The notes: generated by a model from the sequence alone, not told the origin. A stretch of DNA of 12,366 bases from Candidatus Heimdallarchaeota archaeon (GCA_048881705.1 JBHLSH010000093.1:1-12366), one strand, 5' to 3'; counted from the stretch's first letter, positions 1 through 12,366 are shown. Numbers and translations are program-made.

Positions 1-410
1 ATCCTCTCTACATTTTCCTTGGTATACCCTAAACCTAAGATCCTCTCCTTGACTTCAGAGAACTCTTTCTCATCGCCGTACCTCGCGAACTCAAATAATA
101 AATGCTCCAAAAAACCCAAGAACTCCTTTTCGACCAATTTCGTATGAAAGAGCGTTAAGAGTTGGCCAAATGCTTGTCGGTACTCTTCGTTGATGGATGG
201 ATATGGTTTAGCTGTCCGTTTTTTGGAATCCAAAAGGATTTTCCACAGTTGATAGGAGTTTAATTCCAGCATTAACCGTTTAAAAGCATTTGAGACCAAG
301 AACTTCTTAATTCCCAGCCGAAAGAAACTAACTAGGAGGGGATTCAATACAGGATCGATACCATCAGACATCTGTTTGTTAGGAGTTTTGATCTCTTTTT
401 GGTCATTCAT
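1..410 (-). CDS. Hypothetical protein, N-terminal 136 aa only (runs off the left edge; not in the ORF track)
   Basis: Manual translation from ATG at 410 (in-frame TAG immediately upstream) is open to position 3: MNDQKEIKTPNKQMSDGIDPVLNPLLVSFFRLGIKKFLVSNAFKRLMLELNSYQLWKILLDSKKRTAKPYPSINEEYRQAFGQLLTLFHTKLVEKEFLGFLEHLLFEFARYGDEKEFSEVKERILGLGYTKENVER. Composition suggests a soluble, helical protein. No family recognised. Confidence 0.8.
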   Translation of the reverse strand, partial: MNDQKEIKTPNKQMSDGIDPVLNPLLVSFFRLGIKKFLVSNAFKRLMLELNSYQLWKILLDSKKRTAKPYPSINEEYRQAFGQLLTLFHTKLVEKEFLGFLEHLLFEFARYGDEKEFSEVKERILGLGYTKENVER

Positions 411-801
411 CTAATTACGGCCCCTTCACATCATGAGCTTTTCGCTACTCACCTCAGCTGTTAGAAATTGGTTACGCCAGGATATCACCGAAACGTGGAT
501 ATTTTTTGCTTATCTTCTATATCGAAACATCTTCCTCGGGGGTGATCGGAATTTAACCCGCTACCTCTGAGATTTTTTCCACCCTCGAGAATGAGGGTAA
601 ATGACTATAAACTTGTATAAAAGGGGATAAGGGGCATTTCCATCCCAAAATCCTGGATTTCATGATGAAAAGTTAACCCTACCCGAATTTTGGATGGTCA
701 ATTTGGATGTCACCATAGCTTTTCGTGAGCTAATAAGCGAGATTTCCGAATACCTAACGAATAGAGTCCATTAAGTATGCATCTCCCAGGGGATTTCGGA
801 A

Positions 802-3003
802 ATGGTGGATAAGTGGTTAAACTCGGTTCCTGTGTTCCACTTTCAACACATCCCTAGTGAAGTGAACAAAGATAGTGCTAAAGTTTTTAAAAATACTAGA
901 CATCTCTTTTCCCTCGAGTATGAAATCTATGCACCCAATACCGTCCATATCAACTTGATTCCGTTTTCCTCAGGACGATTTCGGAAACCAAAACTCGAAC
1001 AGGGACTCGCCATCACCCAACTCTTTGCTTCTGAAATGGGCTTACACCAGGATTTTCATCTCATTCAAGATTGGCGCATCCAATTGGTATTCCCGTTCTT
1101 AAAGCCTCGTCTTCAGATCGAGAAGAATGGGACTGCGTTCTATTGTGGTGGAATCTATGGCAAAGAGGGCACAAAAGATCGCGTTTTTACTACTTCTTCG
1201 GGATTTACGGATAGCCTCCTTGAAATTTTAACCGATTCTCCTCAATTTGCCCTCCTCCAAATGCTGTTTAAAGCCATTAAAGTCCCCAAAGAATTTCAGA
1301 CGGAAGCAGAACAAGATAAACGTGTCCCCCAGGTTCGTTTTGATATCCAAGCGGGAACTGTCAGTAAACGGTACGGCGCCCCCCATATTAACGTCATGGA
1401 AGAGGCAGGATGCTTTGAATTTTCTCCCCGGATTCTCCTGGCCGAATTCTCCAAAGAACGATTGAGTGAGAAGTTAAATCGCGTGGCAGCGGTCTTTCAG
1501 ACCTACGGGTTCAAAGTAAAGAAAATCCCCACCTTCTTTCACCGCTTTGGTCGCTTTAAGGGCCAGTGCGCCTCACGAAAAATGTTCTCCCCCATTCTTT
1601 TGGATGGACATTCTCTGATGAACCTCATCGTTCCCCCTCAGCGACAATATACCCACGATGGCTATTCATTGGTTCCCAATAAAACCCATTACTCGTTGTC
1701 CGCTAATGTTTCTCCTCCCACCTCGCAACACACCGTCAATTTTGGGATTCCAATCTTAAGTGGTAAGACGAATCCTACTCCGCTCTTTGTCGATGGAAAA
1801 GACCTGTGCCGTCATATGGCCGTGTTCGGGATGACAGGGGAAGGAAAAAGCCGATTTGTGTATGGGTTGCTCAAGGAATTCTTCTTGAAAGGTGTCAAGT
1901 TTATCATTTTTGATCCAAAAGGGGAATATCTCCGTCCTGTCCAAAACTTCTGTTCTAGTGTCCTATATCTAAAGCCAGGATCCACTGAGTTCCCCTGGGG
2001 AGTCAATATCTTTCAGGTTTCCAAAGATCAACGCGGAGACGATCTTATCCCTCTGGAAGATCATGTTCAATTCGTTGTCTCTGTCTTTGAGAACATCCTG
2101 GATGATGCTGATGGTGTATCGCCACAGATGCGGCGGATGCTTCACCTGGCCATCCTACGGACAATTCAGGATCGGGGCGATTTTCGAACTTTACTTGATT
2201 ATCTGGACGACCCGACTGTCCTCGGACTGAAAGGGGCTTATATTGAGAACACGGCTGCAGGATTACTGAATCGGATTGAAAAACTCTTTTTCGGTAATAC
2301 CGGACGCTCCTTTTCTGTAGCGGAAACCACTTTCGAGATCGCAGAACTCTTGAACCGCAATGTTATCATTGATCTTTCTGCGTTTGAAAGCATGGAAGAT
2401 CAACGCGGACGGAATTTGTTTCTTGAAGTGATCTTGCATTACCTCTATTATTTCCTCCGTCGATTTCGTGAACCGATCAAAGAAGAATCGCTCCCTCAAA
2501 ATATCTTGGTCTTCGATGAGGTACAAAAACTCCTGCCAACCCCGAAACGCTGGAGTCGTCAACCTGAATCCATGATTGGCAAAGGACCCTGGACATTGCG
2601 AGCATATGATATTTCCATGATCTTCATTGGTACGGATCCCGTAGTGGATCAACCGATGCTGTCCAATACAGGCATAACCACAATCTTCTATACCAATTAC
2701 AATCCCCAAGTGGTGTCTAATATGTTGGGGTTATCATATCATGATTATGACCAGATGCGGCGGCTGCTCAAGGCAAAAAATGAAGACCGACGGTGTATCA
2801 TTTCCATCAACGGTCAAGCTTCCCTGCTTAAAACCAATGAATTCCCATTAGATGTGGCACACGCCATCGATTGGACACAGATTCACCAACGACCCCTCCA
2901 ACAGCAAATAAAACAGTCATATGATGGCCTCGTCTTCAATCCCGTCAATGAAATGCTCCGTCGGAGTCAACGGGAGAAAATGACCTCCAAAAATCCGCGT
3001 TGA
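802..3003 (+). CDS. HerA/VirB4/FtsK-superfamily P-loop ATPase (DUF87/HerA-central type) with a ~320-aa N-terminal extension
   Basis: DLCRHMAVFGMTGEGKS (Walker A at 1828-1851), then FIIFDPKGEY, typical of HerA/DUF87. Walker B ILVFDE at 2503-2520. LRAYD (2596-2610) carries the arginine expected at the 'GRKYG' position. Confidence 0.9.
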   Translation: MVDKWLNSVPVFHFQHIPSEVNKDSAKVFKNTRHLFSLEYEIYAPNTVHINLIPFSSGRFRKPKLEQGLAITQLFASEMGLHQDFHLIQDWRIQLVFPFLKPRLQIEKNGTAFYCGGIYGKEGTKDRVFTTSSGFTDSLLEILTDSPQFALLQMLFKAIKVPKEFQTEAEQDKRVPQVRFDIQAGTVSKRYGAPHINVMEEAGCFEFSPRILLAEFSKERLSEKLNRVAAVFQTYGFKVKKIPTFFHRFGRFKGQCASRKMFSPILLDGHSLMNLIVPPQRQYTHDGYSLVPNKTHYSLSANVSPPTSQHTVNFGIPILSGKTNPTPLFVDGKDLCRHMAVFGMTGEGKSRFVYGLLKEFFLKGVKFIIFDPKGEYLRPVQNFCSSVLYLKPGSTEFPWGVNIFQVSKDQRGDDLIPLEDHVQFVVSVFENILDDADGVSPQMRRMLHLAILRTIQDRGDFRTLLDYLDDPTVLGLKGAYIENTAAGLLNRIEKLFFGNTGRSFSVAETTFEIAELLNRNVIIDLSAFESMEDQRGRNLFLEVILHYLYYFLRRFREPIKEESLPQNILVFDEVQKLLPTPKRWSRQPESMIGKGPWTLRAYDISMIFIGTDPVVDQPMLSNTGITTIFYTNYNPQVVSNMLGLSYHDYDQMRRLLKAKNEDRRCIISINGQASLLKTNEFPLDVAHAIDWTQIHQRPLQQQIKQSYDGLVFNPVNEMLRRSQREKMTSKNPR

Positions 3004-3097
3004 TTCGGTTTTACCCGGTTTAACGCTCACAAGAACATTTTATTAAGCGGTATCACCCTTAATTCCAATCACAAAATGAGATGGGGAGCCATATCCA

Positions 3098-3664
3098 ATG
3101 ATAACAAAAGTGGCTGTAACCAGAAGATCCTATCAATTAAGGAGTCTGGGGTGGCAGATCTGGTATTATCAGAATTCCTTGTTTTTGATTCTCTTCGTGA
3201 TTCTCCCCATCAACCTCTTTTTGAGCATAGTACTACCTTGGTGGGGAGATTGGCTGGGAGCAGTTGTAAACCTTTTGTTCAATGTTTGTATGTTCCTCGA
3301 TCTGTTCAGCATAAGTTTAATTACATCTAGTTTCCTTTTCGATTCTTATAGGGAGGGATCTCAGCTTTTCGGGAACCGTCGCCTCTTTTTAGGAGTTTTC
3401 GCTGGATCCTTATGGATTATGGCAAGCTTTCTATGGAGGTTCCCTTTTTTCCTTATTTCCGTACAGAATGTTTACCAAAGCGGTATAGGTTTTCGTGTAT
3501 CTTGGCTATACAGTGGACAACCAGAGAGACGTTTTTTACCTCCAGGATTTGATTTCATCTCCAATCCCCTCCAATCATATCTTTTCTTTGCAGGGGGCTT
3601 TTTCTTATTCATCTTTCTCCACAGAAATGATGTTTTATTATCAGAAACATCCAAAAATCGTTAA
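3098..3664 (+). CDS. Multi-pass membrane protein, 5' part of a probably frameshifted gene continuing into 3700-4614
   Basis: About 4-5 hydrophobic segments (e.g. SLFLILFVILPINLFLSIVLPWW, LFLGVFAGSLWIMASFLW, YLFFAGGFFLFIFL). The stop follows an A5 run at 3653-3657, and the downstream gene's frame is open from 3631. Confidence 0.75.
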   Translation: MITKVAVTRRSYQLRSLGWQIWYYQNSLFLILFVILPINLFLSIVLPWWGDWLGAVVNLLFNVCMFLDLFSISLITSSFLFDSYREGSQLFGNRRLFLGVFAGSLWIMASFLWRFPFFLISVQNVYQSGIGFRVSWLYSGQPERRFLPPGFDFISNPLQSYLFFAGGFFLFIFLHRNDVLLSETSKNR

Positions 3665-3699
3665 CTTCAGACAAAAAACCAAGGATTGTCCTTGGAACG

Positions 3700-4614
3700 G
3701 TGTACGGGATCATAAATCTTATTGCAGGGGTTTTTTTCCTTCTTACAATTGGTAATGTTTCTCTAGGCAACCCATTTTCTTCCAACTGGACAACCATTTT
3801 TTTACTCGTTTCGATCGCGAAGTTATTTCTTGTGCCATTCATCGGGTTAATAGCTACCCGAAGGTATCTCTCCTCTCTTAATGATTTAACAGGAACATCA
3901 AAAAACGGCTTGGTAGCATTAAATGGTTCTCCAACTCAAGCCCATGCATCAGAGAAGGTTCGCCCTACTCCACCAACTTTTAAGATTCTAACTATTGGAT
4001 TTTTTATATTGGTCCTCCTCCCTATCTCACCAGCTTTCATTGGAAATCTGCAGCCCTCTCCTGCAATTTCTGGGCCCTACATTACACGTTTAGCGCCATC
4101 CCATGGAATGCAAGCCCTACAATACGTTGAAGGCCTTTCCCCTGAAGATCTCGGTTCACCAATCCGATATGTTGTGGTAAATGACTCTCTTAATTTCTTT
4201 CTTAGGTTAATCCGAGACGGTACCTCCTTGGAAGGCCAAGCGTTTCGTCCGTATATTTACAGCTTAAATTGGACGGTTTCCATTGAAGAAGCTTTGGTTC
4301 CAATTCTCAATTCTTCCTCACTCCATGGTTATTGGATTAAGAATTTTGATCCCAATTATTTAACTCGTCTGATGTGGTGGGAGAATGGTACCCGTATTGA
4401 TCTGGGTGCTCAAGAGGACTCGTGGATCTCCGATCTGAATCAAACTTCCTTCCAGGATTTTTCATACTCGATTTTTTGGGTTTTTTCAGGCGAGGTAAGA
4501 TATAGCGAGGTTTTTGGGGAATTGGGGGCAAATTTTATTCATACAGAGCAGATGTTTTCCTTGATGCAGATTTACATCCAGTGTGTGGCGCCATCGTGGT
4601 CAGTCATGCTGTAG
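3700..4614 (+). CDS. Membrane protein with ~3 TM segments and a C-terminal extracytoplasmic domain; probably the 3' part of the 3098 gene
   Basis: Hydrophobic segments YGIINLIAGVFFLLTI, IFLLVSIAKLFLVPFIGLIA and ILTIGFFILVLLPISPAFI, then a soluble domain with NxS/T sequons (NDS, NWT, NSS, NGT, NQT). The GTG start falls within a hydrophobic helix that extends upstream in frame (RIVLGTV). Confidence 0.8.
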   Translation: MYGIINLIAGVFFLLTIGNVSLGNPFSSNWTTIFLLVSIAKLFLVPFIGLIATRRYLSSLNDLTGTSKNGLVALNGSPTQAHASEKVRPTPPTFKILTIGFFILVLLPISPAFIGNLQPSPAISGPYITRLAPSHGMQALQYVEGLSPEDLGSPIRYVVVNDSLNFFLRLIRDGTSLEGQAFRPYIYSLNWTVSIEEALVPILNSSSLHGYWIKNFDPNYLTRLMWWENGTRIDLGAQEDSWISDLNQTSFQDFSYSIFWVFSGEVRYSEVFGELGANFIHTEQMFSLMQIYIQCVAPSWSVML

Positions 4615-4714
4615 CATAAGCTGATCTTAGTATTGGTTGTGCCAGAAGACCCCCTTGTCGGGGCTTCTCTAGAGAAACTCTCCGGATAATACTCACCTCA
4701 AGATTTCAAAACAG

Positions 4715-4801
4715 GATTTCCTCATAGTACCACCGTAAAAAACGGTTCTCCGCTATTATTGACCGATTGTGAGGGGGGTGATGATAATTAGATGCCCGCA
4801 T
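4715..4801. repeat. Dispersed bipartite intergenic repeat, copy A
   Basis: 4721-4760 matches 8692-8731 at 32/40 nt ungapped. 4776-4801 matches 8763-8788 at 24/26 nt. 4727-4761 matches 9161-9195 at 30/35 nt. It lies between convergent genes. Confidence 0.9.
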
Positions 4802-4824
4802 AGGAAAAGAAGGAGCAGTTTAGG

Positions 4825-7086
4825 TCATTTCTTCCGCTGCCGAAGGAGAAGCATGGCCAATACCCCGAGAAGCCCCATGAGAACATGCCAACCTGAAGAG
4901 ATCGCAGTTGTTGTGGTCGTACCCGTTAATAACGGGGTTTTTATGGTAAACGGGCTACTCGAGAGTGTTTCGCTGATGAATCCTATACTATCTGTTGCCT
5001 GGACTTTGAGGAGAATGATTGTTCCGTTAGAGATAGCGGTTAGATCCCATGTGTAATGCAGAGACGCCATTCCAGAAGCGATTTCTATCCATGTCGCCCC
5101 GCTATCAGTCGAATAAAGAACCGAATATGCGAGAGAATGCCCGAATGTGTCGCTCGAGGCAGTCCACTCAATGGTCACCTCGTCCTTTAACGTCAAGGTC
5201 CCACCTGTTGGAGCCGTAATGACTGGTGCCGATAAATGATAGGGATTTGTCAGACGCGAAGTGTCCTGATTCCCCGTAGAGCCCCCAATGGGATACGGCC
5301 CCGTTCTCGTCCAATCACTCCAATAATTCTTTTCAAAGACATTGTTAGAGCTATCATCGGAGGCAGAATCGCTGGAAAAATCATTAAATCGGATTCGGTT
5401 ATTGTCAGAGGATGAAAAATATATTCCTAGTCCGTTATTATCTAACAACAGATTTTCCTGGATCTCATTATTCGTGGAGTTTGTTTGAAACCCAATCCCT
5501 GCTCCATTGCCAAAAATAGTGTTGTTAAAGATATTGTTGTGATGATTATTGGAATAAATCCCAATCCCTGCTTCAGAATTATTGAAAACAGTGTTCATTG
5601 TAATATTATTGTCATAATTATTCCCCGTTCCCCCCCCAATCCCTATTCGAATACCCACGTTGACACTGTCAAAAACGCTGTTGTTGTGGATAATATTGTC
5701 ATGAGAATATGTAAACACAATTCCATCGCTATTTTTGAGGATCTGATTGCTTTCAATGGTGCCATGCATGACGTTCGAGAAAGAAATTCCTATTCCAGGG
5801 GTGGACATTCCATTCAGAATGCAATTAGCTATTCTAAAATGATCTGTTGTTCCACTGACAGATATTAAAGTACCACTATATCCAGTGAGGTTGAATCCCG
5901 AAATCCGATAAGGGTTATTAATGGTTCCGGCTCCGGGGAATCCATGCGATGAAAAATCTCCATTATTATTTATTGAAATCGGGCCTGTAATGATACCCAT
6001 ATCTGTAATCCATTGATTTAAACTTGCTGAGTCATTGGGTGCCGTAATTTCCTGTGATATGATTTTATTACGTACTGTAACATTTACTTCTTGGATTTTT
6101 TCCGACCCTATTATTTTCTGAGTATGGGTTAACGGAGAAAGACCAAGACCATCCTCTGCTAGCCCTAGTGATTTAGTCCCATTTTTCCAAACATCATTGT
6201 AAAACTCAAGAATTCCATTATAAACAGCCACATCAACTCTTTTCATCATAGAAGTAAGAACTCGGCCTGGATACAAATCATCTTGGTCTATATCAACTCC
6301 GATGGCATAATATCCAGATCCTTGTTCATTTGCGGACTCCAAAACCCCCAGGCCGCTTTTGCCCGCAACTGCAAAGATAATGTCCACACCTTGAGACCAC
6401 ATCGCTTCAGCTTTTGCTTTTGCAGTTGTATTATCGTCAAATGATCCAACAAAATCTTCTAAAATTTCAAGATAGCTTCGATTTTTCTCATATAGTGCTC
6501 CCGCTTCATACCCAGCCCAGAATTTACGAATCAGAGGGGCATCCAGACCACCAATAAAACCAATCTTCCCTGTTTTGGTCATTAAACCAGCCATACTACC
6601 AACAAGGAAAGATCCTTCCTCCTCTCTAAATATAACAGAGCTGACATTTCCCACAGTAACGATATTATCTATTAACAGGAAAGGTTGGCTAGAATAGATT
6701 GATGCGACATTTTGAACAGCTGCCTTTTGGGCAAACCCAACAGCGATAATCAAATCATATAATCCAGAACTGGCGTATGTAGTCAACTCAGGTTCGAAAT
6801 CGCTAGTACTAGAGGGTAGGGAATAAGTAAAAGTGCATAAGCCATCTGTTTGAGCTTTCTGGAGCCCCTCATAAGCCATGTCATTGAAACCTAAATTGTT
6901 TAATCCACCAGTTGAAAAAACACAGGCCACATTGATGGACCCAACATTTACTTTACCATGGACACGAGATTCAATATTTGACGAATTGCTAACAGCAAAT
7001 TCCTCAAGAGGATGTAAGTTGGGTTGAATTGTCACCAGAGTTGTTAAGACAATAAACGTTAGGAAAGTTAGATTGGTTTTTCTCAT
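4825..7086 (-). CDS. Cell-surface protein: signal peptide + BMP/PnrA-family (basic membrane protein) substrate-binding domain + right-handed parallel beta-helix (NosD/CASH-like) + Ig/FN3-like domain + C-terminal sorting signal
   Basis: aa ~50-350 carry BMP motifs (GGLNNLGFNDMAYEG, DLIIAVGF, FREEEGSFLVG, KIGFIGG, GVDIIFAVAG, AIGVDIDQ, VLTSMMKRVD). aa ~368-615 have GFPGAGTINNPYRI and N/I/G-rich beta-helix repeats. aa ~620-715 (APVITAP...IEW...YSVLYSTDSGATW...YTWD...LKVQATD) look Ig/FN3-like. The tail is TTTTTAISSGW + hydrophobic helix + RQRKK. Confidence 0.9.
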   Translation of the reverse strand: MRKTNLTFLTFIVLTTLVTIQPNLHPLEEFAVSNSSNIESRVHGKVNVGSINVACVFSTGGLNNLGFNDMAYEGLQKAQTDGLCTFTYSLPSSTSDFEPELTTYASSGLYDLIIAVGFAQKAAVQNVASIYSSQPFLLIDNIVTVGNVSSVIFREEEGSFLVGSMAGLMTKTGKIGFIGGLDAPLIRKFWAGYEAGALYEKNRSYLEILEDFVGSFDDNTTAKAKAEAMWSQGVDIIFAVAGKSGLGVLESANEQGSGYYAIGVDIDQDDLYPGRVLTSMMKRVDVAVYNGILEFYNDVWKNGTKSLGLAEDGLGLSPLTHTQKIIGSEKIQEVNVTVRNKIISQEITAPNDSASLNQWITDMGIITGPISINNNGDFSSHGFPGAGTINNPYRISGFNLTGYSGTLISVSGTTDHFRIANCILNGMSTPGIGISFSNVMHGTIESNQILKNSDGIVFTYSHDNIIHNNSVFDSVNVGIRIGIGGGTGNNYDNNITMNTVFNNSEAGIGIYSNNHHNNIFNNTIFGNGAGIGFQTNSTNNEIQENLLLDNNGLGIYFSSSDNNRIRFNDFSSDSASDDSSNNVFEKNYWSDWTRTGPYPIGGSTGNQDTSRLTNPYHLSAPVITAPTGGTLTLKDEVTIEWTASSDTFGHSLAYSVLYSTDSGATWIEIASGMASLHYTWDLTAISNGTIILLKVQATDSIGFISETLSSSPFTIKTPLLTGTTTTTAISSGWHVLMGLLGVLAMLLLRQRKK

Positions 7087-7139
7087 GTAGATGCCTTCAA
7101 AGTTTTAATCCAAGATGTGAAATGCCCATAAATGAGAAC

Positions 7140-7382
7140 TTACGGGTTTAGAGGATTTTGGTTTCCCGTCATCTCAAGTATAAAAGAATTACGATTTTCT
7201 TGAAACACAAATGAGGTGGATTCTAACTCTGCCTCAACCTGAGATTCTGAAACAGGATTTTCTGTGTTAGTAAGAGGAACCGTCGACTCTGACAACCTCC
7301 GATCATTGCTATCAATTCCCCAGATGTAAAAGCCGAATAAAAGGAAGAAAATCATTAACCTGTTTAATTTCTTAAGAGTCAT
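7140..7382 (-). CDS. Short secreted-type ORF or 5' remnant of a surface-protein gene (80 aa)
   Basis: Basic N-terminus plus hydrophobic stretch (MTLKKLNRLMIFFLLFGFYIWG), then an S/T/E-rich polar linker and a stop. GGTAGG lies 8 nt upstream of the ATG on the minus strand. It is not in frame with the 7086 gene. Confidence 0.55.
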   Translation of the reverse strand: MTLKKLNRLMIFFLLFGFYIWGIDSNDRRLSESTVPLTNTENPVSESQVEAELESTSFVFQENRNSFILEMTGNQNPLNP

Positions 7383-7678
7383 TTTTTTTTCCTACCAAAT
7401 TAAAATGATCTATTGAGCGTGCTTTTCATTTTTTAAAAGACAACAGCATAATTCGAATTCCTGTAGGATTCATCACGAATCGTCAAAGTTCCTTGAAGGT
7501 CTTCTCGAAATGCCCACTTTTCTAAACCAGGAAAAAAAAAGCAATAACATTCTCGACATTATTAATCTTGATTGCTTCATGTTTCCACCTCGGGCGTTTT
7601 CTTACAATAAAAAGCTCATTATAACACTTTAGAGGGATTATTAGTGCCAAGGGACTCCTGCTTTGCAGGATATTGGCG

Positions 7679-7703
7679 TATATAAAACTTACGAATTTCG
7701 TAA
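7679..7703. promoter_or_regulatory. TATA-like box immediately followed by a 15-bp palindrome (candidate operator)
   Basis: TATATAAA at 7679-7686, then TTACGAA-T-TTCGTAA at 7689-7703, inside the divergent intergenic region 7383-7886. Confidence 0.4.
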
Positions 7704-7840
7704 TTTACTTCAGGTTTTACTATTTTTATGGGGTAACTCCCTCTTCCCCTAGCGAGAGATTGAGAGGTTTAACATCTCCTATCGGGTTATTACGAGTGAA
7801 ATGATATTTAAATTTCACAATTTTATAAATTAAAATAATA

Positions 7841-7857
7841 CCCAAAATGTTTTTATA
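7841..7857 (+). promoter_or_regulatory. Candidate archaeal BRE/TATA promoter for the 7887 gene
   Basis: CCCAAAATG-TTTTTATA, with the TATA box (7850-7857) ending 30 nt before ATG 7887. This spacing is typical of leaderless archaeal transcripts. Confidence 0.45.
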
Positions 7858-7886
7858 TTCGGGTACGCGATCATTTGCGAATTATC

Positions 7887-8735
7887 ATGGGTGAACCTGA
7901 GAAGGAGAAAACCAGCTGGTCGGATCATGTGCGGAATTTTATCCTCGCCTGGTATTTATGGACTGGAGTAGTTTTTGTTGGAGTGTTTTTCATTATATTT
8001 ATTCCAGCCGCGTTGGTAAGTTGGATTGGTATGTGGGGTTTGGACGTTGTGTTAACGCAATTCCCATACTTAATTGTCGCCATTCCATTTCTACTTCCAT
8101 ATCTACTTGTATTTCTTGCATGGCCCCTTTTCTATCTGGTTATGCTGGATATATCATTAATTTCAGTGATACTGCAGGATTTAGTGCTATTGAACAATCC
8201 TTTATCGTACATATTTTATCTTCTGTTCCTTATTATTCCAGTAGTAGGGTATTTACTTACATATTTCCGGTATTATACACGGATTCCTCGGTCAAAAGAA
8301 GACCTCATCCTCCCGTTAAGTAAGAATTTGCTATTAGAAAAACGATTAATTCAGGAAGAGGGCGAGAACCCCACACCGATTTTGAGTAAAAGTTCGGTGA
8401 TAATCGGTGTAGTATTGCTAACGGTGGGATTCGTTGATCTCAATTTGGCACTCGTGGGCGTGATACTATTCGTGATGGTGATTCTAACTGCCCGCATACA
8501 GGAAGAGAAGAAAGAGAAGAAAGAGAAGAAGGAAGAAGGGAAGGGTCTAGTTTCAGTATGCAGAATGAAGAAGAAGGCGAAATCCATAGCATTGAAGGGG
8601 GGCCGCGCATCTGTCCCGCATGTCGATTTGCGAATAAAAGCACAAACGCAGAATGCAGCAATTGCGGCGCAACACTTCGGGAGTGAATTAACTCGTAGTA
8701 CCGCTGTAAAGAGCCGTTCTCCGCGATTAATCTAA
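7887..8735 (+). CDS. Multi-pass membrane protein; likely true start ATG 7887; true C-terminus probably the zinc ribbon in the -1 frame (ending 8686)
   Basis: About 5-6 hydrophobic segments, then EEKKEKKEKKEE. The frame-0 tail after ~8545 has no recognisable features, whereas the -1 frame encodes a CxxC-x10-CxxC motif. Confidence 0.8.
   Translation: MGEPEKEKTSWSDHVRNFILAWYLWTGVVFVGVFFIIFIPAALVSWIGMWGLDVVLTQFPYLIVAIPFLLPYLLVFLAWPLFYLVMLDISLISVILQDLVLLNNPLSYIFYLLFLIIPVVGYLLTYFRYYTRIPRSKEDLILPLSKNLLLEKRLIQEEGENPTPILSKSSVIIGVVLLTVGFVDLNLALVGVILFVMVILTARIQEEKKEKKEKKEEGKGLVSVCRMKKKAKSIALKGGRASVPHVDLRIKAQTQNAAIAAQHFGSELTRSTAVKSRSPRLI
8505..8531 (+). repeat. In-frame 9-bp tandem repeat (GAGAAGAAA x2 + GAGAAGAAG) encoding EKK x3
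   Basis: Read directly from the sequence at 8505-8513, 8514-8522 and 8523-8531. Confidence 0.85.
8558..8686 (+). CDS. Zinc-ribbon module (42 aa from ATG 8558), either a separate micro-gene or the frameshifted C-terminus of the 7887 gene
   Basis: MQNEEEGEIHSIEGGPRICPACRFANKSTNAECSNCGATLRE*. It contains CPAC-x3-N-x6-CSNCG, the pattern of RanBP2-like/zinc_ribbon_2 domains. This frame is open from 8438. Confidence 0.8.
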   Translation: MQNEEEGEIHSIEGGPRICPACRFANKSTNAECSNCGATLRE

Positions 8736-8788
8736 GATCACTAGGTTTTCGTACTGGCTAGCGGGTGATGATAGTTAGATGCCTGCAT
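8686..8788 (-). repeat. Dispersed bipartite intergenic repeat, copy B, with attC-like box arrangement on the minus strand
   Basis: Homologous to copy A (32/40 and 24/26 nt). The minus strand reads ATCTAAC-TATCA-TCACCCGC ... GCGGTAC-TACGA-GTTAATT. Confidence applies to the repeat; the attC interpretation is much less certain. Confidence 0.85.
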
Positions 8789-9073
8789 TGAAAGTGACTC
8801 AGGACCATACATGTCAGAAGAAATAAATTGAAATTTCACCTGGTCTTTCAGCTGTTGGGATCTATCATAACTCCCACCAGCGTCGAAAGTTCATCCCACG
8901 AATCCCTAATCTGATGAATTTGTCCCCATTACAGGTCTAGTCATGCTTTCATACCCCCAAAGAGGAATGGCCTCCTATAAATCTCAGCGAAATAGCAGTT
9001 TACTGATGTCGTGCAAATTTTGACTTCGTTGGTCAGCTATCAAGAAAGAATCCCTTCATGACCGAGGGTTCAT

Positions 9074-9160
9074 TTATTGCCTATTTTTTCTTTTAGTTTG
9101 CCACCAAACACTCACTAGGATGGTTATGAAAACTAGTGGAATGTTCCATGCTGGGGTTGG
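9074..9160 (-). pseudogene. Orphan C-terminal sorting-signal remnant of a surface-protein gene
   Basis: The minus strand reads PTPAWNIPLVFITILVSVWWQTKRKNRQ* (stop at 9074-9076), the same motif + TM + basic-tail layout as the 4825-7086 protein. The frame closes upstream at TAA 9209-9211. Confidence 0.5.
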
Positions 9161-9202
9161 GTCCCGCCTTAAAAAACCGTTCTCCACTATTATTGGAAGA
9201 TC
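9161..9202. repeat. Half copy (block 1 only) of the dispersed repeat, copy D
   Basis: GTCCCGCCTTAAAAAACCGTTCTCCACTATTATTG is 30/35 identical to 4727-4761. The following AAGATCA also matches copy B (8734-8740). Confidence 0.85.
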
Positions 9203-9509
9203 AGTGCATTATCAAACAGACTTAGACAAACGGAATTTTGGCAGACAGCTCTTCCCATCATTTCTACCCTGCTGCAAGGTGGTTTTAAATCCCGTAGGTA
9301 GCGCTACGAGCATTGCTCAATGAAAATGCGACCATTAAAAATCCTTTTCCAATGGATCCGAAGCCTCGAGACCTTCTCCTCATGCGCTATAAGCGCCCAA
9401 TAAATGTCTCAATCGCGCATATATTCTGCAAGCCATATGGTATACATTCCTTAAATTCTCCTTTTTTCACGTGGTCTTTAATCCTAGATTATAGAGTGTG
9501 GGACTAAGA

Positions 9510-12366
9510 GTGAGAAAAGAGAAAATCTTATTGATTTGGATTCTTATTTTAGTTTTTGGAGCTGTACTCCCCTCTAATGGAGTTATGAACGAGACCACTT
9601 TGCAGGATGGTCCGTATGCTGTAGACAGACTCACTTCGACAGTCTCGACTGTCAGTACCCGTGATGAGGGAGCCAGTTCGTCTAGAATGGTTACTAAAAG
9701 CGACTTAAGTAATGAAACCAGTTTGGCCAGTACAGGAGGTTCTAACAAAACCTTAACCGCAAAAATGGCTGATCCCATACAGGCTAATGGTGATTCCCCA
9801 GGGTGGATCGTCGATCCGACTGGGCACACCGCTGGATATAATCTTTCAGACTATTCTGACACCTATTTTGAACTCCGAGGATCCCGAGGCCAATTTTCTC
9901 GGCACTTCTATAATAAAACCTCCGGAAAATATACTTATCAATCTGATGCCTTAGTTCAAAAAACAGGAGTCTTTGAGGATACGATTTGGGTAACTGAGGA
10001 CGAATATCCCCATAGATTCATGTTACGCTTACGAGGCGGAGAGACTTATCTCTTTGAGACCGCAGGGGACATAACAACCTTCCTGAAAACCGTTGATAGG
10101 TCATCCATTTGGTCGGTCGGATTTGAAAGCTTCGCAGGCGTTATGGGTTTTTACCTAAATGCTCTCGACACTAGGAGTGGACATGGACAATATCTATATT
10201 GGCCCCGCTTGAGTGATGGTTCAATCAACGGCCTTGATCAGCCGTTATACGCCATTTATCCCCATCTTTTTGCAAAGTCGAACGGTCAATGGATGGATCA
10301 GATCCTGACTGATCGATCCTTGTATTCTGGAAAGTTACAGAGTCTGCAAGACACGTTAACGTTTTATGACTCCTCAACTGAATTTGGAGTTTTTTTCTCG
10401 TTAATGAATACAGGGATTCAAGGAACGAATTGGAATTTTAAACATGGTTTCAAATATCGCATGAGTGACCAGTCCTATCACATGATCACAGAAATAGAGT
10501 GTCTTAGCCACGATTTCGACGATATCGGATTAGCGTATGACTTAACAACAGCACCCCAGAATGAAAATAGCGCCTATTCTCCCAATCATTTCGTGTTGAC
10601 AAGTGAAGAAGAGGAAGTTGTAATATCCGCAGAAGAGACCTGGCAGGCAAAAAACTATCTGACTGATTTCTGGTCTCAAGTAAATCTAGTGACAGAAAAC
10701 GGCGAACAGTTTCATTTTGTCTTTGATGATATGGCGCTTACGGGTTTTTCCGAGAAATATCTGCAATGGACAAACCTTCAGCTACCTGATAATACGGTCA
10801 AAAAGGTCCTCAGAGCAGGCATGTATGGATTTGGCACTTACCGAGCTGGTACAACAGTTGAAATTGATCCCTTCCCAGTGTATTCAACAGATAATTATGA
10901 TTTGTACCGAAAATGGACTACCTGGTACACCGGGTACACCTATATGATTGTCGGGTCGCAAGCTAGCACCCTTCATTCTATGTACCTGGCGTTTAATACA
11001 GGCTTGGATTTTGATGTTTGGGATATCACCTCTGTTTCACTCCAACTTTATTGTGAAACCTCAACTTTCGATGACTCAAGTGAAGGAGCCTCATGCTATG
11101 TATATAATGTGGGAGGAAACGCGGATAGCAACACGGCAAAGGAGAATTCCCTGAGTTACGCTACAGGGACGAATGCTTTTGAATCCAAAGTTTACAGTGG
11201 AAATATTGGATCAGGGGGTTATAAAACGGCGGATCAGACCAAAATGGGGAATCTGCTTAATTTTTGGGCAGACAATCGGAATTCCAATGAAAACTGGATT
11301 AGTTTCCGTTTCAGTCCCTCTGGCCCCGAATCTGAAGATTATTATAAGTTCCGGGATAGTCAGTATTCAGGAACGAGCCGTGATCCCAAATTATCCTTCC
11401 TTTATCATCCCACCGATTACACGATTGGTGGGCTTGTTCATCACGATGGTAACGGAATTCAGGGGGCCTACGTCCAGCTTTTTCATAATGGTGCAAAAAT
11501 CGGAGAAGATGTGACAAGTAGTTCAGGCGCATATTCGATTGGGGTAACCGAGGATAATCACGATTATACCTTATGGGCCTGGCATGAAGATTACATTAGC
11601 CAATCTGAGACTGTAAGACCAACTGAAGACCTGATAGTGAATTTCAATTTAGTGGCGGTAAATATCCCCACTCAAAACCCACCCTTTGGGGTACGAAGTC
11701 CTACCGCGTTCACGGAAGATGATACGACGGCGTGGAAACAAGAAACCCAGGCCTACGCTTTAGGAACGGATTATGCCGTTAGCGAAAAAGCCGATAAGAA
11801 CATCTATTACAAAAGCTATGGATGGCAAGTCCCCAGTACCGTCACGATTCAGGGCGTTTATGTCTATGTCCATTGGAAATCCGTTCTTGATGATAGACTC
11901 AGTGTAAAACTCTATTGGAACGGAGGGGCGAGCTCTCCCAGTACCTTAAGTACTTCAGCGTGGGCGTTTACTGTCCTAAACTATACCAGTGTGACTTCAT
12001 GGACGGCCGCAAAAATCAATAGTGATCAGTTTCGTGTAAGTCTCAAACAAGTGGAGTATGGAGTGACCCAAGACAAACTCATTGTGGACTGGGTGGGAAC
12101 GCTGGTGGAATACGCTGATGTTCGAGCTTTCACGTGTTACACGCTGAATGGCACCAAAGGCGAAAACTATTCGTTTAACATCTTATTCCATAACTATGGC
12201 ACCGTGGCTGCGGCTCATTTTGACTTTAAAGTTAAACTTGAAAACTTCAATTATACAGATTACGACACCTGGATAAATAATACATATGCAGGCACGTCAC
12301 TTAATGCAGATTCATCGGTGTGGGTCAATAATATCATTATCAACCGAACGTTTGAAGGCACCGCTG
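9510..12366 (+). CDS. Large secreted/surface glycoprotein, N-terminal >952 aa (runs off the right edge; not in the ORF track)
   Basis: Manual translation from GTG 9510 (alternative GTG 9498) is open to the window end. It has a signal peptide (MRKEKILLIWILILVFGAVLP), an S/T-rich linker and many NxS/T sequons. It also contains a DNRLRE-like segment (YLAFNTGL...ITSVSLQLY...FRDSQYSGTSRDPKLSFLY), a carboxypeptidase-regulatory/transthyretin-like Ig fold (GLVHHDGNGIQGAYVQLF...TSSSGAYSI...YTLWAWHEDY), a jelly-roll-like segment (YGWQVPSTVTIQGVYVYVHW) and the start of a CARDB-like module (FNILFHNYG). Confidence 0.9.
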   Translation, partial: MRKEKILLIWILILVFGAVLPSNGVMNETTLQDGPYAVDRLTSTVSTVSTRDEGASSSRMVTKSDLSNETSLASTGGSNKTLTAKMADPIQANGDSPGWIVDPTGHTAGYNLSDYSDTYFELRGSRGQFSRHFYNKTSGKYTYQSDALVQKTGVFEDTIWVTEDEYPHRFMLRLRGGETYLFETAGDITTFLKTVDRSSIWSVGFESFAGVMGFYLNALDTRSGHGQYLYWPRLSDGSINGLDQPLYAIYPHLFAKSNGQWMDQILTDRSLYSGKLQSLQDTLTFYDSSTEFGVFFSLMNTGIQGTNWNFKHGFKYRMSDQSYHMITEIECLSHDFDDIGLAYDLTTAPQNENSAYSPNHFVLTSEEEEVVISAEETWQAKNYLTDFWSQVNLVTENGEQFHFVFDDMALTGFSEKYLQWTNLQLPDNTVKKVLRAGMYGFGTYRAGTTVEIDPFPVYSTDNYDLYRKWTTWYTGYTYMIVGSQASTLHSMYLAFNTGLDFDVWDITSVSLQLYCETSTFDDSSEGASCYVYNVGGNADSNTAKENSLSYATGTNAFESKVYSGNIGSGGYKTADQTKMGNLLNFWADNRNSNENWISFRFSPSGPESEDYYKFRDSQYSGTSRDPKLSFLYHPTDYTIGGLVHHDGNGIQGAYVQLFHNGAKIGEDVTSSSGAYSIGVTEDNHDYTLWAWHEDYISQSETVRPTEDLIVNFNLVAVNIPTQNPPFGVRSPTAFTEDDTTAWKQETQAYALGTDYAVSEKADKNIYYKSYGWQVPSTVTIQGVYVYVHWKSVLDDRLSVKLYWNGGASSPSTLSTSAWAFTVLNYTSVTSWTAAKINSDQFRVSLKQVEYGVTQDKLIVDWVGTLVEYADVRAFTCYTLNGTKGENYSFNILFHNYGTVAAAHFDFKVKLENFNYTDYDTWINNTYAGTSLNADSSVWVNNIIINRTFEGTA

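Follow-up and report, generated by a model that had tools for sequence, protein, structure and literature searches.

A small family of non-coding repeats bordering swappable gene blocks of a Heimdallarchaeota genome

Two similar intergenic sequences in a 12,366-nt stretch of DNA (the window; GCA_048881705.1, JBHLSH010000093.1) from Candidatus Heimdallarchaeota archaeon belong to a real, small family of non-coding repeats that lies at the borders of swappable gene blocks. The repeat is tentatively best explained as a double-stranded, non-coding junction element, restricted to this lineage, where gene modules are swapped. No known prokaryotes are closer to eukaryotes than the Asgard archaea, whose gene gain and shuffling are poorly understood; here a discrete non-coding element borders gene modules and is kept between sister species while the nearby genes are replaced.

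Copies and spread of the family

The two copies described in the earlier note, A and B, both lie where it placed them, and its measurements were reproduced: block 1 is identical at 32 of 40 positions (4721-4760 vs 8692-8731), block 2 at 24 of 26 (92.3%; 4776-4801 vs 8763-8788), and the variable middles are 15 nt in A and 31 nt in B. A degenerate pattern over both blocks matches these two sites alone in the window and has no match in 200 shuffles, and the A/B similarity is far above chance expectation. The pair was correctly seen but the family was understated, as a third copy (C) lies in the window and others (D, E and F) lie on other contigs. With copy A as the query, a whole-genome BLAST search returned further copies with E values of 6e-12 and 9e-10; nhmmer and BLAST place D and E on contig C125 and F on C111. 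The genome-wide search counts five full copies (A, B, D, E and F), one half copy (C) and one weak copy (H), confined to contigs C93, C125, C111 and C62. Short exact matches on C19, C44 and C7 are weak or fall within ORFs, and were treated as chance.

A sister species (G001) has two full copies and fragments, including those called G1, G2 and G3 below. All copies come from metagenome-assembled contigs, 6-7 in this genome and 3-5 in G001. Pairwise identity among copies is 45-75% and there is no clustering by genome (A and G1 are 75% identical, A and B 63%), so the family is either older than the species split or has been exchanged. The covariance model found no copy in another 20 genomes of the genus, nor in the 80 kb surrounding seven HerA homologues from metagenomes, and no family member turned up in degenerate-pattern scans of metagenome, genome and viral collections or in BLAST searches of plasmid and phage collections.

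Anatomy, constraint and break points

The element is about 155 nt long and non-coding, and consists of TAGAGAAAYTCTCC, a left arm, the core GTMCCGCC, block 1, which contains a TATA-like A/T run, an indel-prone middle and block 2, which ends in YTAGATGCCCGCAKWG (Table 1). In the alignment, six copies have a common sharp left end, TAGAGAAA, with unrelated DNA leftward of it. The break in A/B homology that had been placed at G|TTAATT in copy B did not hold up, since the left arm there is a diverged homologue (72% over 60 nt) back to about 8670, overlapping the last codons of the upstream ORF 7875-8735. Copy A (covariance-model score 79.6 bits) is without the 17-nt middle hairpin and sits between convergent genes. 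On the right, A, G1 and G3 stop no more than about 30 nt past block 2, where genes unrelated to one another have their stop codons, and the A-G1 homology continues exactly as far as the Bmp-type surface gene's stop codon. B, E and F remain homologous for about another 150 nt (to 8935 in the window), a stretch that includes an invariant AT-rich 21-mer, GAAGAAATAAAWTGAAATTTC, which is found in these three copies only and is possibly promoter-like. Neither terminal inverted repeats nor target duplications were found at the element, the ends TAGAGAAA... and ...GCATAGG not being inverted repeats of each other.

Table 1. Features of the window, numbered from its first nucleotide
Feature	Position	Strand	Description
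HerA/VirB4-like ATPase gene	802..3003	+	Conserved anchor of the region; 90% nt and 94% aa identity to G001
Copy A, full	4670..4806	+	Left end TAGAGAAA, left arm, core GTACCACC, blocks 1 and 2
T-rich stretch	4807..4827	-	Reaches the Bmp-type surface gene's stop codon (minus strand)
Cargo block between A and B	4825..8687		Bmp/beta-helix surface protein, 80-aa ORF, zinc-ribbon membrane protein
Copy B core	8670..8793	+	Diverged left arm, core, block 1, 31-nt middle, block 2
Right extension	8794..8935	+	Non-coding; common to B, E and F alone
Orphan C-terminal membrane-anchor tail	9074..9160	-	Without gene body; fused directly to the core of copy C
Copy C, half	9161..9210	+	Core GTCCCGCC, block 1, start of middle; left break at core
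Module X	9208..9400	-	Upstream region and first ~17 codons of a surface-protein gene

Differences among the copies are spread over the three codon positions without periodicity (112/118/99), and stops occur in every frame in some copy; a worn gene tail or small ORF, for which the peptide-like …KNRSPLLL.DH* is tempting, was rejected on these grounds. E and F each precede a TPR gene; these two genes are paralogues (60% aa identity) and are 41.7% identical at fourfold sites, compared with 67.6% for the 376-nt upstream region. Though non-coding, the element evolves far slower than synonymous sites; for E and F, regulation or gene conversion could be the reason.

Partial copies break off at a single core of 8-10 bases, GTMCCGCC. 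In model coordinates, where the core is 21-28, C spans 21-84, G2 spans 1-29 and H spans 19-113, giving three partial copies of which H is weakly aligned (E 0.004). C and G2 are complementary halves that overlap only in GTMCCGCC(TT), and module X, to the right of C here, is to the left of G2 in G001. Further breaks lie in the middle region (the deletion in A, the right end of C and the relics in G001), and C itself is a 50-nt scrap, unlike the product of a clean site-specific deletion.

Neighbouring modules and their turnover

Copies separate blocks of one to three genes, and lie at convergent genes or gene ends (A, B and G3), between divergent genes (E and F) or between tandem genes (D and G1). 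They are co-oriented within each contig, and also with HerA or its tail copies (C93, C125-C62, G001:C37 and G001:C6). Worn copies of the last 27-75 codons of HerA are present on other contigs and in G001, in the same orientation as the element; several of these HerA-tail modules are without any element copy. In the assembly, the hypervariable region connects to a gene-tail cassette array. A search for paralogues of the orphan anchor tail, made with a secondary site in mind, found none.

Only HerA (90%), module X, the HerA-tail copies and pieces of the element are common to the 12.4 kb studied here and G001, and that species has nothing at the DNA level that corresponds to the cargo between A and B. 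Full conservation of flanking gene order in relatives had been named as evidence against recombination; the order proved not to be conserved, the repeats being common to G001 and the intervening genes not. F and G1 have 323 nt of non-coding DNA in common (79% identity), with different genes on both sides. An esterase gene that lies beside F here is found in G001 between G3 and a block-2 relic, and module X matches the start of a 628-aa G001 gene at 83% identity, there beside the half copy G2. The modules of G001 match eight contigs here, in a different order. The proposal that the repeats mark the shuffling of surface and membrane genes draws support from this context of co-oriented copies, blocks of one to three genes and modules reordered in G001.

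What the element may do

Within a hypervariable region that includes worn HerA tails, the element marks the borders of swappable blocks, and would most likely serve as a conserved patch for joining and exchanging modules, either by homologous recombination between copies in different strains or through a hypothetical enzyme cutting near the core. Several points argue for exchange: the comparison with G001, where the same scaffold carries different cargo, the discrete unit with its sharp left end, the common polarity, the breaks of partial copies at the core, the slow change of the E/F upstream region and the lack of clustering by genome. Against it stand the small size of the family, its 45-75% identity, the scrap that is copy C, the breaks outside the core, the tail modules without an element, and the failure to find a linked recombinase or a dif-like site. 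The family and its limits, its constrained non-coding character, the shared orientation, the replacement of cargo and the break points are observed; that this replacement results from recombination at the element, and through which enzyme, we infer. If modules are exchanged here, the element offers a short, defined DNA site for testing the mechanism.

The main rival, possible but rather unlikely, is a portable regulatory module copied with or beside genes by ordinary duplication: a promoter, operator or leader (or a terminator), first seen upstream of TPR genes, whose blocks would be putative binding sites of a regulator. It would account for the position of E and F before paralogous genes, for the retention of their upstream region and for the 21-mer confined to B, E and F, and the T-rich runs that follow stop codons beside A, G1 and G3 are also in its favour. 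Block 2 of H (YTAGATGCC) is, in addition, one of five CTAGAT motifs within 83 nt; this cluster, the only one in the genome, lies directly upstream of a small gene on C62 for an 81-aa winged-helix protein. However, no one transcriptional role suits convergent, divergent and tandem settings, and G001 retains the element without a close TPR gene. Also left unexplained are why the copies share a sharp left end, why they point the same way as the HerA tails and why half copies exist. Even if only regulatory, the element would be a rare case, for an Asgard genome, of a non-coding unit that is both constrained and portable.

A narrower form of the exchange reading, which we consider unlikely, takes the element as the double-stranded recognition and crossover site, with GTMCCGCC as its core, of a trans-acting or host-enzyme system that would build and reshuffle integrase-less cassette stacks; it would then be a Hodarchaeales non-coding counterpart of displaced gene-tail repeats. 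As for a dif-like XerA site, nine copies scanned for 9-11-bp arms with 3-10-bp spacers have no inverted repeat at a shared position, and the candidate was rejected.

That the copies are neutral relics, an intergenic stretch duplicated a few times in an unstable region and now decaying, is quite unlikely. A small family with 45-75% identity, nested and ragged homology limits and scraps (copy C, the relics in G001) is what such decay might leave, but the excess of E/F upstream identity over fourfold sites points to constraint or homogenisation, the same blocks are conserved even in pairs that are 45-48% identical overall, and non-coding units are kept between species while the flanking genes are replaced.

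Still less probable is that the island carries a gene for a small non-coding RNA with weak structure or none. Conservation of non-coding sequence independently of its neighbours and the TATA-like run in block 1 are consistent with such a gene; structure is not. Single folds are no better than shuffles, RNAalifold of the core and right extension on either strand gives -3.5, -5.4 and -4.7 kcal/mol (the covariation term being absent for the first two), and in the small middle hairpin no pair is altered on both sides. An Rfam cmscan of the whole window (E up to 10) yields four chance-level matches only; one weak match, to snoR79, overlaps copy A and scores 18.8 bits against a cut-off of 80. A C/D-box sRNA suggested by GTGATGA in block 2 was rejected: this C-box-like motif is lost in E and F, there is no D box and the Rfam matches are at chance level.

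Of the interpretation in the earlier note, the gene-shuffling border is supported by context, and the decaying attC-like or hairpin recombination site is not supported. Copy B alone can be read as R''-L''-L'-R', direct-orientation repeats do separate gene blocks, and integrons are on record in Asgard MAGs (PMC9668308). In the six full copies, however, neither single-stranded DNA nor RNA folds better than shuffles (z -1.1 to +1.2); bottom-strand DNA folds reach -4.1 to -9.4 kcal/mol (z -0.55 to +1.23) and never pair the ends. The proposed R and L helices are present only in copy B (three of the seven R''/R' pairs occur in this one of six copies) and have no pair with compensatory change, and the pairing is reached in 121 of 500 shuffles. 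RYYYAAC occurs in two of six copies and GTTRRRY in one, B; at the R'' position AAC is found in B and G1 only, with ATCTAAT in A, ATCTGAC in D, ATCTAGC in E and ATTTAGC in F. Sequence blocks are kept and structure is not, the reverse of attC.

Nor was a matching enzyme found. The sole PF00589 match in the genome, on contig C16, is XerA-like, scoring 259.9 bits as XerA (cut-off 220) and 146.4 as integron integrase (cut-off 265). No IntI and no match to the Y1/HUH transposase family (PF01797) was found, although the genome is 91% complete and absence is not proven. No recombinase linked to the element was found; IS607-type serine recombinases are present, on contigs unrelated to it, and nhmmer finds no similarity between the element and the IS607/TnpB element on C133. 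With no PF01797 match and no stable or covarying hairpin, an IS200/IS605 or REP/RAYT substrate was rejected, and a true integron attC site or any other folded single-strand substrate is extremely improbable. The box pattern of a single copy is poor ground for calling attC sites.

Set beside known systems, the element resembles each in part. Like integron attC sites and CALIN arrays, which include cases from Asgard MAGs (Ghaly et al. 2022, PMC9668308), it forms direct short repeats between gene blocks, several copies abut gene 3' ends, no integrase is nearby, as in CALINs, and sites are more alike within a lineage. In contrast to these systems, fold-back, conserved R boxes and IntI are missing here, sequence rather than structure is conserved, and the blocks hold one to three genes in mixed orientation at 0.4-4 kb spacing. 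MITE, REP and BIME sequences are likewise short and non-coding, lie between genes and have a defined end; the element differs in its lack of terminal inverted repeats, target duplications and a stable hairpin, and in its restriction to about seven copies, 45-75% identical, in one variable region. The Xer-dependent dif modules of Acinetobacter plasmids (PMC6449649, PMC13141974) are integrase-less, have short conserved borders, are shuffled between replicons and are suspected of using a host enzyme, for which XerA is present here. A dif site, however, is 28 bp, with two 11-bp inverted arms and a 6-bp spacer (PMC2958812), and the present sites are about 155 nt and direct rather than alternating.

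Islands and cassette stacks bounded by displaced gene or tRNA 3' ends are also known, and archaeal integrases have been reviewed (PMC8371274). Unlike the HerA-tail copies nearby, the element does not duplicate a coding 3' end. As in displaced gene-tail arrays, co-oriented repeats bound integrase-less modules that differ between sister species; the genome region and the polarity are also the same, with the HerA-tail copies and the membrane-protein-tail array on these contigs or on ones linked to them.

Distribution and constraint of the junction element

The contig that forms the window, C93 (12,366 bases), belongs to a 3.96-Mb genome (G000) of 155 contigs with 41% G+C. As the earlier note had claimed, copies A and B share two conserved blocks (block 1 with 32/40 identities, block 2 with 24/26), separated by a middle of 15 nt in A and 31 nt in B; a degenerate pattern over both blocks matched the window at these two copies only and matched 0/200 shuffles. 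BLAST and exhaustive nhmmer searches raised the count to seven copies genome-wide, of which five are full, one is a half copy (C) and one is weak (H), and the sister species, G001, carries further copies (listed in the table) as well as two block-2 relics. According to a sequence-only covariance model run on 22 genomes of the genus, the family is restricted to these two genomes. Nothing matched when metagenome, genome and viral collections were scanned by pattern, when the surroundings of seven metagenomic HerA homologues were searched with a model, or when plasmids and phages were searched by BLAST; there was no family match in Rfam, and no published description was found, including in PMC8813620, PMC9668308 and PMC2958812.

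The junction element is non-coding but constrained. No open frame is kept across all copies and the differences among them are spread evenly over the three codon positions (core 112/118/99, right extension 12/9/15), hence its non-coding status. Neutrality is contradicted by the 376-nt region upstream of the tetratricopeptide (TPR) genes behind copies E and F, which is 67.6% identical, compared with 41.7% at the fourfold sites of the genes themselves (60% protein identity). The motifs GGATTTCC, AGTA, TCTCC, ATTA and TAGATGCC persist in copy pairs of only 45–48% overall identity. A sharp left end, TAGAGAAA, is common to six copies, and the right end of A, G1 and G3 lies within ~30 nt of the stop codons of unrelated neighbour genes; homology extends for 150 nt more to the right among B, E and F, and for 215 nt more to the left between F and G1. 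The TPR paralogue family is large (>20 tblastn matches on many contigs). Its closest third member (C8:3-1907) begins at the very start of contig C8, so that the assembly lacks the sequence upstream of it, in which a copy of the element might occur; the same contig carries a TPR C-terminal fragment (C8:43258-42890).

Coordinates of element copies, recombinase genes and gene-tail copies
Feature	Location	Strand	Remark
Copy A	C93:4670-4806		full
Copy B	C93:8670-8793		full
Copy C	C93:9161-9210		half copy, third in window
Copy D	C125:3414-3529		full
Copy E	C125:549-701		full
Copy F	C111:2615-2768		full
Copy H	C62:11197-11121	minus	weak copy
Copy G1	G001:C37:2596-2750		
Copy G2	G001:C37:5448-5516		half copy
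Copy G3	G001:C6:25350-25507	minus	
21-mer GAAGAAATAAAWTGAAATTTC	window 8817-8837; L015:724-744; L016:2791-2811		L015, L016: loci of copies E, F
IS607-type pair	C133:1037-2895		serine recombinase + TnpB-like gene
Second serine recombinase	C141:488-889		TGA-interrupted
XerA-like ORF	C16 (L024) 1417-2673	minus	418 aa, family matches in two stretches
HerA-tail source	window 2779-3003		
HerA-tail copies, G000	C136:98-178; C152:909-1037; C124:1952-2026		
HerA-tail copy, G000	C62:11274-11201	minus	
HerA-tail copies, G001	C37 (L025) 408-557, 16562-16699, 18388-18480		
HerA-tail copy, G001	C6:26517-26318	minus	
Membrane-protein tail copies	C62: 1, 1187, 3245, 4026, 6872, 9573		

Break points and turnover of the neighbouring genes

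The break points of the three partial copies fall at one place: C starts at GTCCCGCC (model position 21), H starts at about the same point (position 19) and G2 stops after GTACCGC(C)TT (position 29), the chance of three independent ends falling within ~11/116 positions being roughly estimated at ~3%. Other breaks and indels concentrate in the middle region. C and G2 are complementary halves of the element, and module X, the upstream region and first ~17 codons of a surface-protein gene, is found on the right of C in the window and, in G001, on the left of G2. On the minus strand of window 9074-9400, X, which is the head of that gene, runs into the 50-nt scrap of element (C); beyond the scrap lies an orphan C-terminal anchor of 29 codons that keeps its stop. 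This arrangement indicates that the body of the gene was lost at the element. The orthologue of the head is the head of a 628-aa G001 gene (L025:3413-5299, minus), and a stop codon is present inside the scrap.

The HerA gene of G001 is 90% identical to that of the window, and besides HerA the window DNA common to the two species comprises only module X (190 nt), pieces of the element and copies of the HerA tail. None of the window's cargo genes has a DNA-level counterpart in G001, and cargo G+C matches the genome. The modules of G001 contig C37 are spread in G000 over eight different contigs and in changed order. An esterase gene adjoins F in G000 and is flanked by G3 and a block-2 relic in G001, its homology between the species stopping within ~26 nt of the start and 10 nt of the stop.

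Exchange site, regulatory module or attC

The best-supported reading, which we hold tentatively, is that the element acts as double-stranded DNA at which gene modules would be exchanged by a putative enzyme. This mechanism is our inference, the data being about ten copies in two metagenome-assembled genomes. The recombinases found in G000, in searches covering a genome 91% complete, are XerA and two IS607-type serine recombinases, the latter on contigs unrelated to the element (C133 and C141). The element contains no dif-like site for XerA, though XerA is present; the XerA-like ORF may carry an extension or insert, given its length against the 263-aa XerA profile.

The main rival, that the element is a portable regulatory module, is somewhat unlikely, though compatible with the exchange reading. 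It is favoured by the AT-rich 21-mer, an invariant part of the right extensions of B, E and F with no other occurrence in the genome and possibly a promoter-like or palindromic binding site, and by block 2 of H, which is one of five CTAGAT motifs ahead of a small winged-helix gene; however, the copies share no single arrangement of flanking genes, these being convergent, divergent or tandem. The five motifs fall within 83 nt, the sole such cluster in the genome, directly upstream of the 81-aa gene (MarR/ArsR-like, sub-threshold; motifs and gene at C62 11152-10791, minus), and are likely an autoregulated operator.

The earlier proposal that the copies are integron attC-like single-strand sites fails for want of a fold, conserved boxes and IntI. 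Folded as bottom-strand ssDNA or RNA, the six full copies do no better than dinucleotide shuffles, their ends are never paired, and RNAalifold found almost no structure on either strand. Counted on the alignment, 3/7 pairs of the proposed R''/R' helix are present in copy B only; in the R''/R' and L''/L' helices 0 pairs changed on both sides, and the observed R/L pairing was reached by 121/500 shuffles. AAC of the R'' box is kept in 2/6 copies and B alone has the R' box; the supposed homology break of B at G|TT disappears, its left arm being a diverged homologue of the others. The search for IntI yielded a single tyrosine recombinase, above the XerA cut-off and below the integron-integrase cut-off, and no Y1/HUH transposase was found in the 91%-complete genome. 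In archaea, attC sites are reported to retain the single-strand fold known from bacteria, and IntI its special domain (PMC9668308); neither holds for the junction element.

Displaced gene tails

Element copies are co-oriented within each contig, and their direction is also that of the HerA/VirB4-like ATPase gene (802-3003) or of the worn copies of its tail. The final 27–75 codons of this gene recur on four other G000 contigs (C136, C152, C124 and C62) and at four places in G001, with different genes downstream of each copy, and form a displaced gene-tail array anchored on HerA. The array was seen only in the source species and its sister; no tail copies were found within 10 kb of four more distant metagenomic HerA loci. 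The ATPase has weak NCBIfam matches, far below cut-offs, to CedD and VirB4-type conjugation ATPases, and a 50% identical paralogue on C20.

A second, gutted HerA locus is present on C62 (11391-11121, minus), where the upstream region and gene start (80% to G001) run directly into HerA nt 2806-2881 and then into copy H; the fusion reads as a 132-aa ORF (11149-11547). C62 is linked to C125 by a 77-base contig-end overlap, and its first part (1-9641) holds six copies of the tail of another gene, encoding a membrane protein (...LSQPEVEQLY...*), with a conserved 3' flank, which looks like a gene-tail cassette array.
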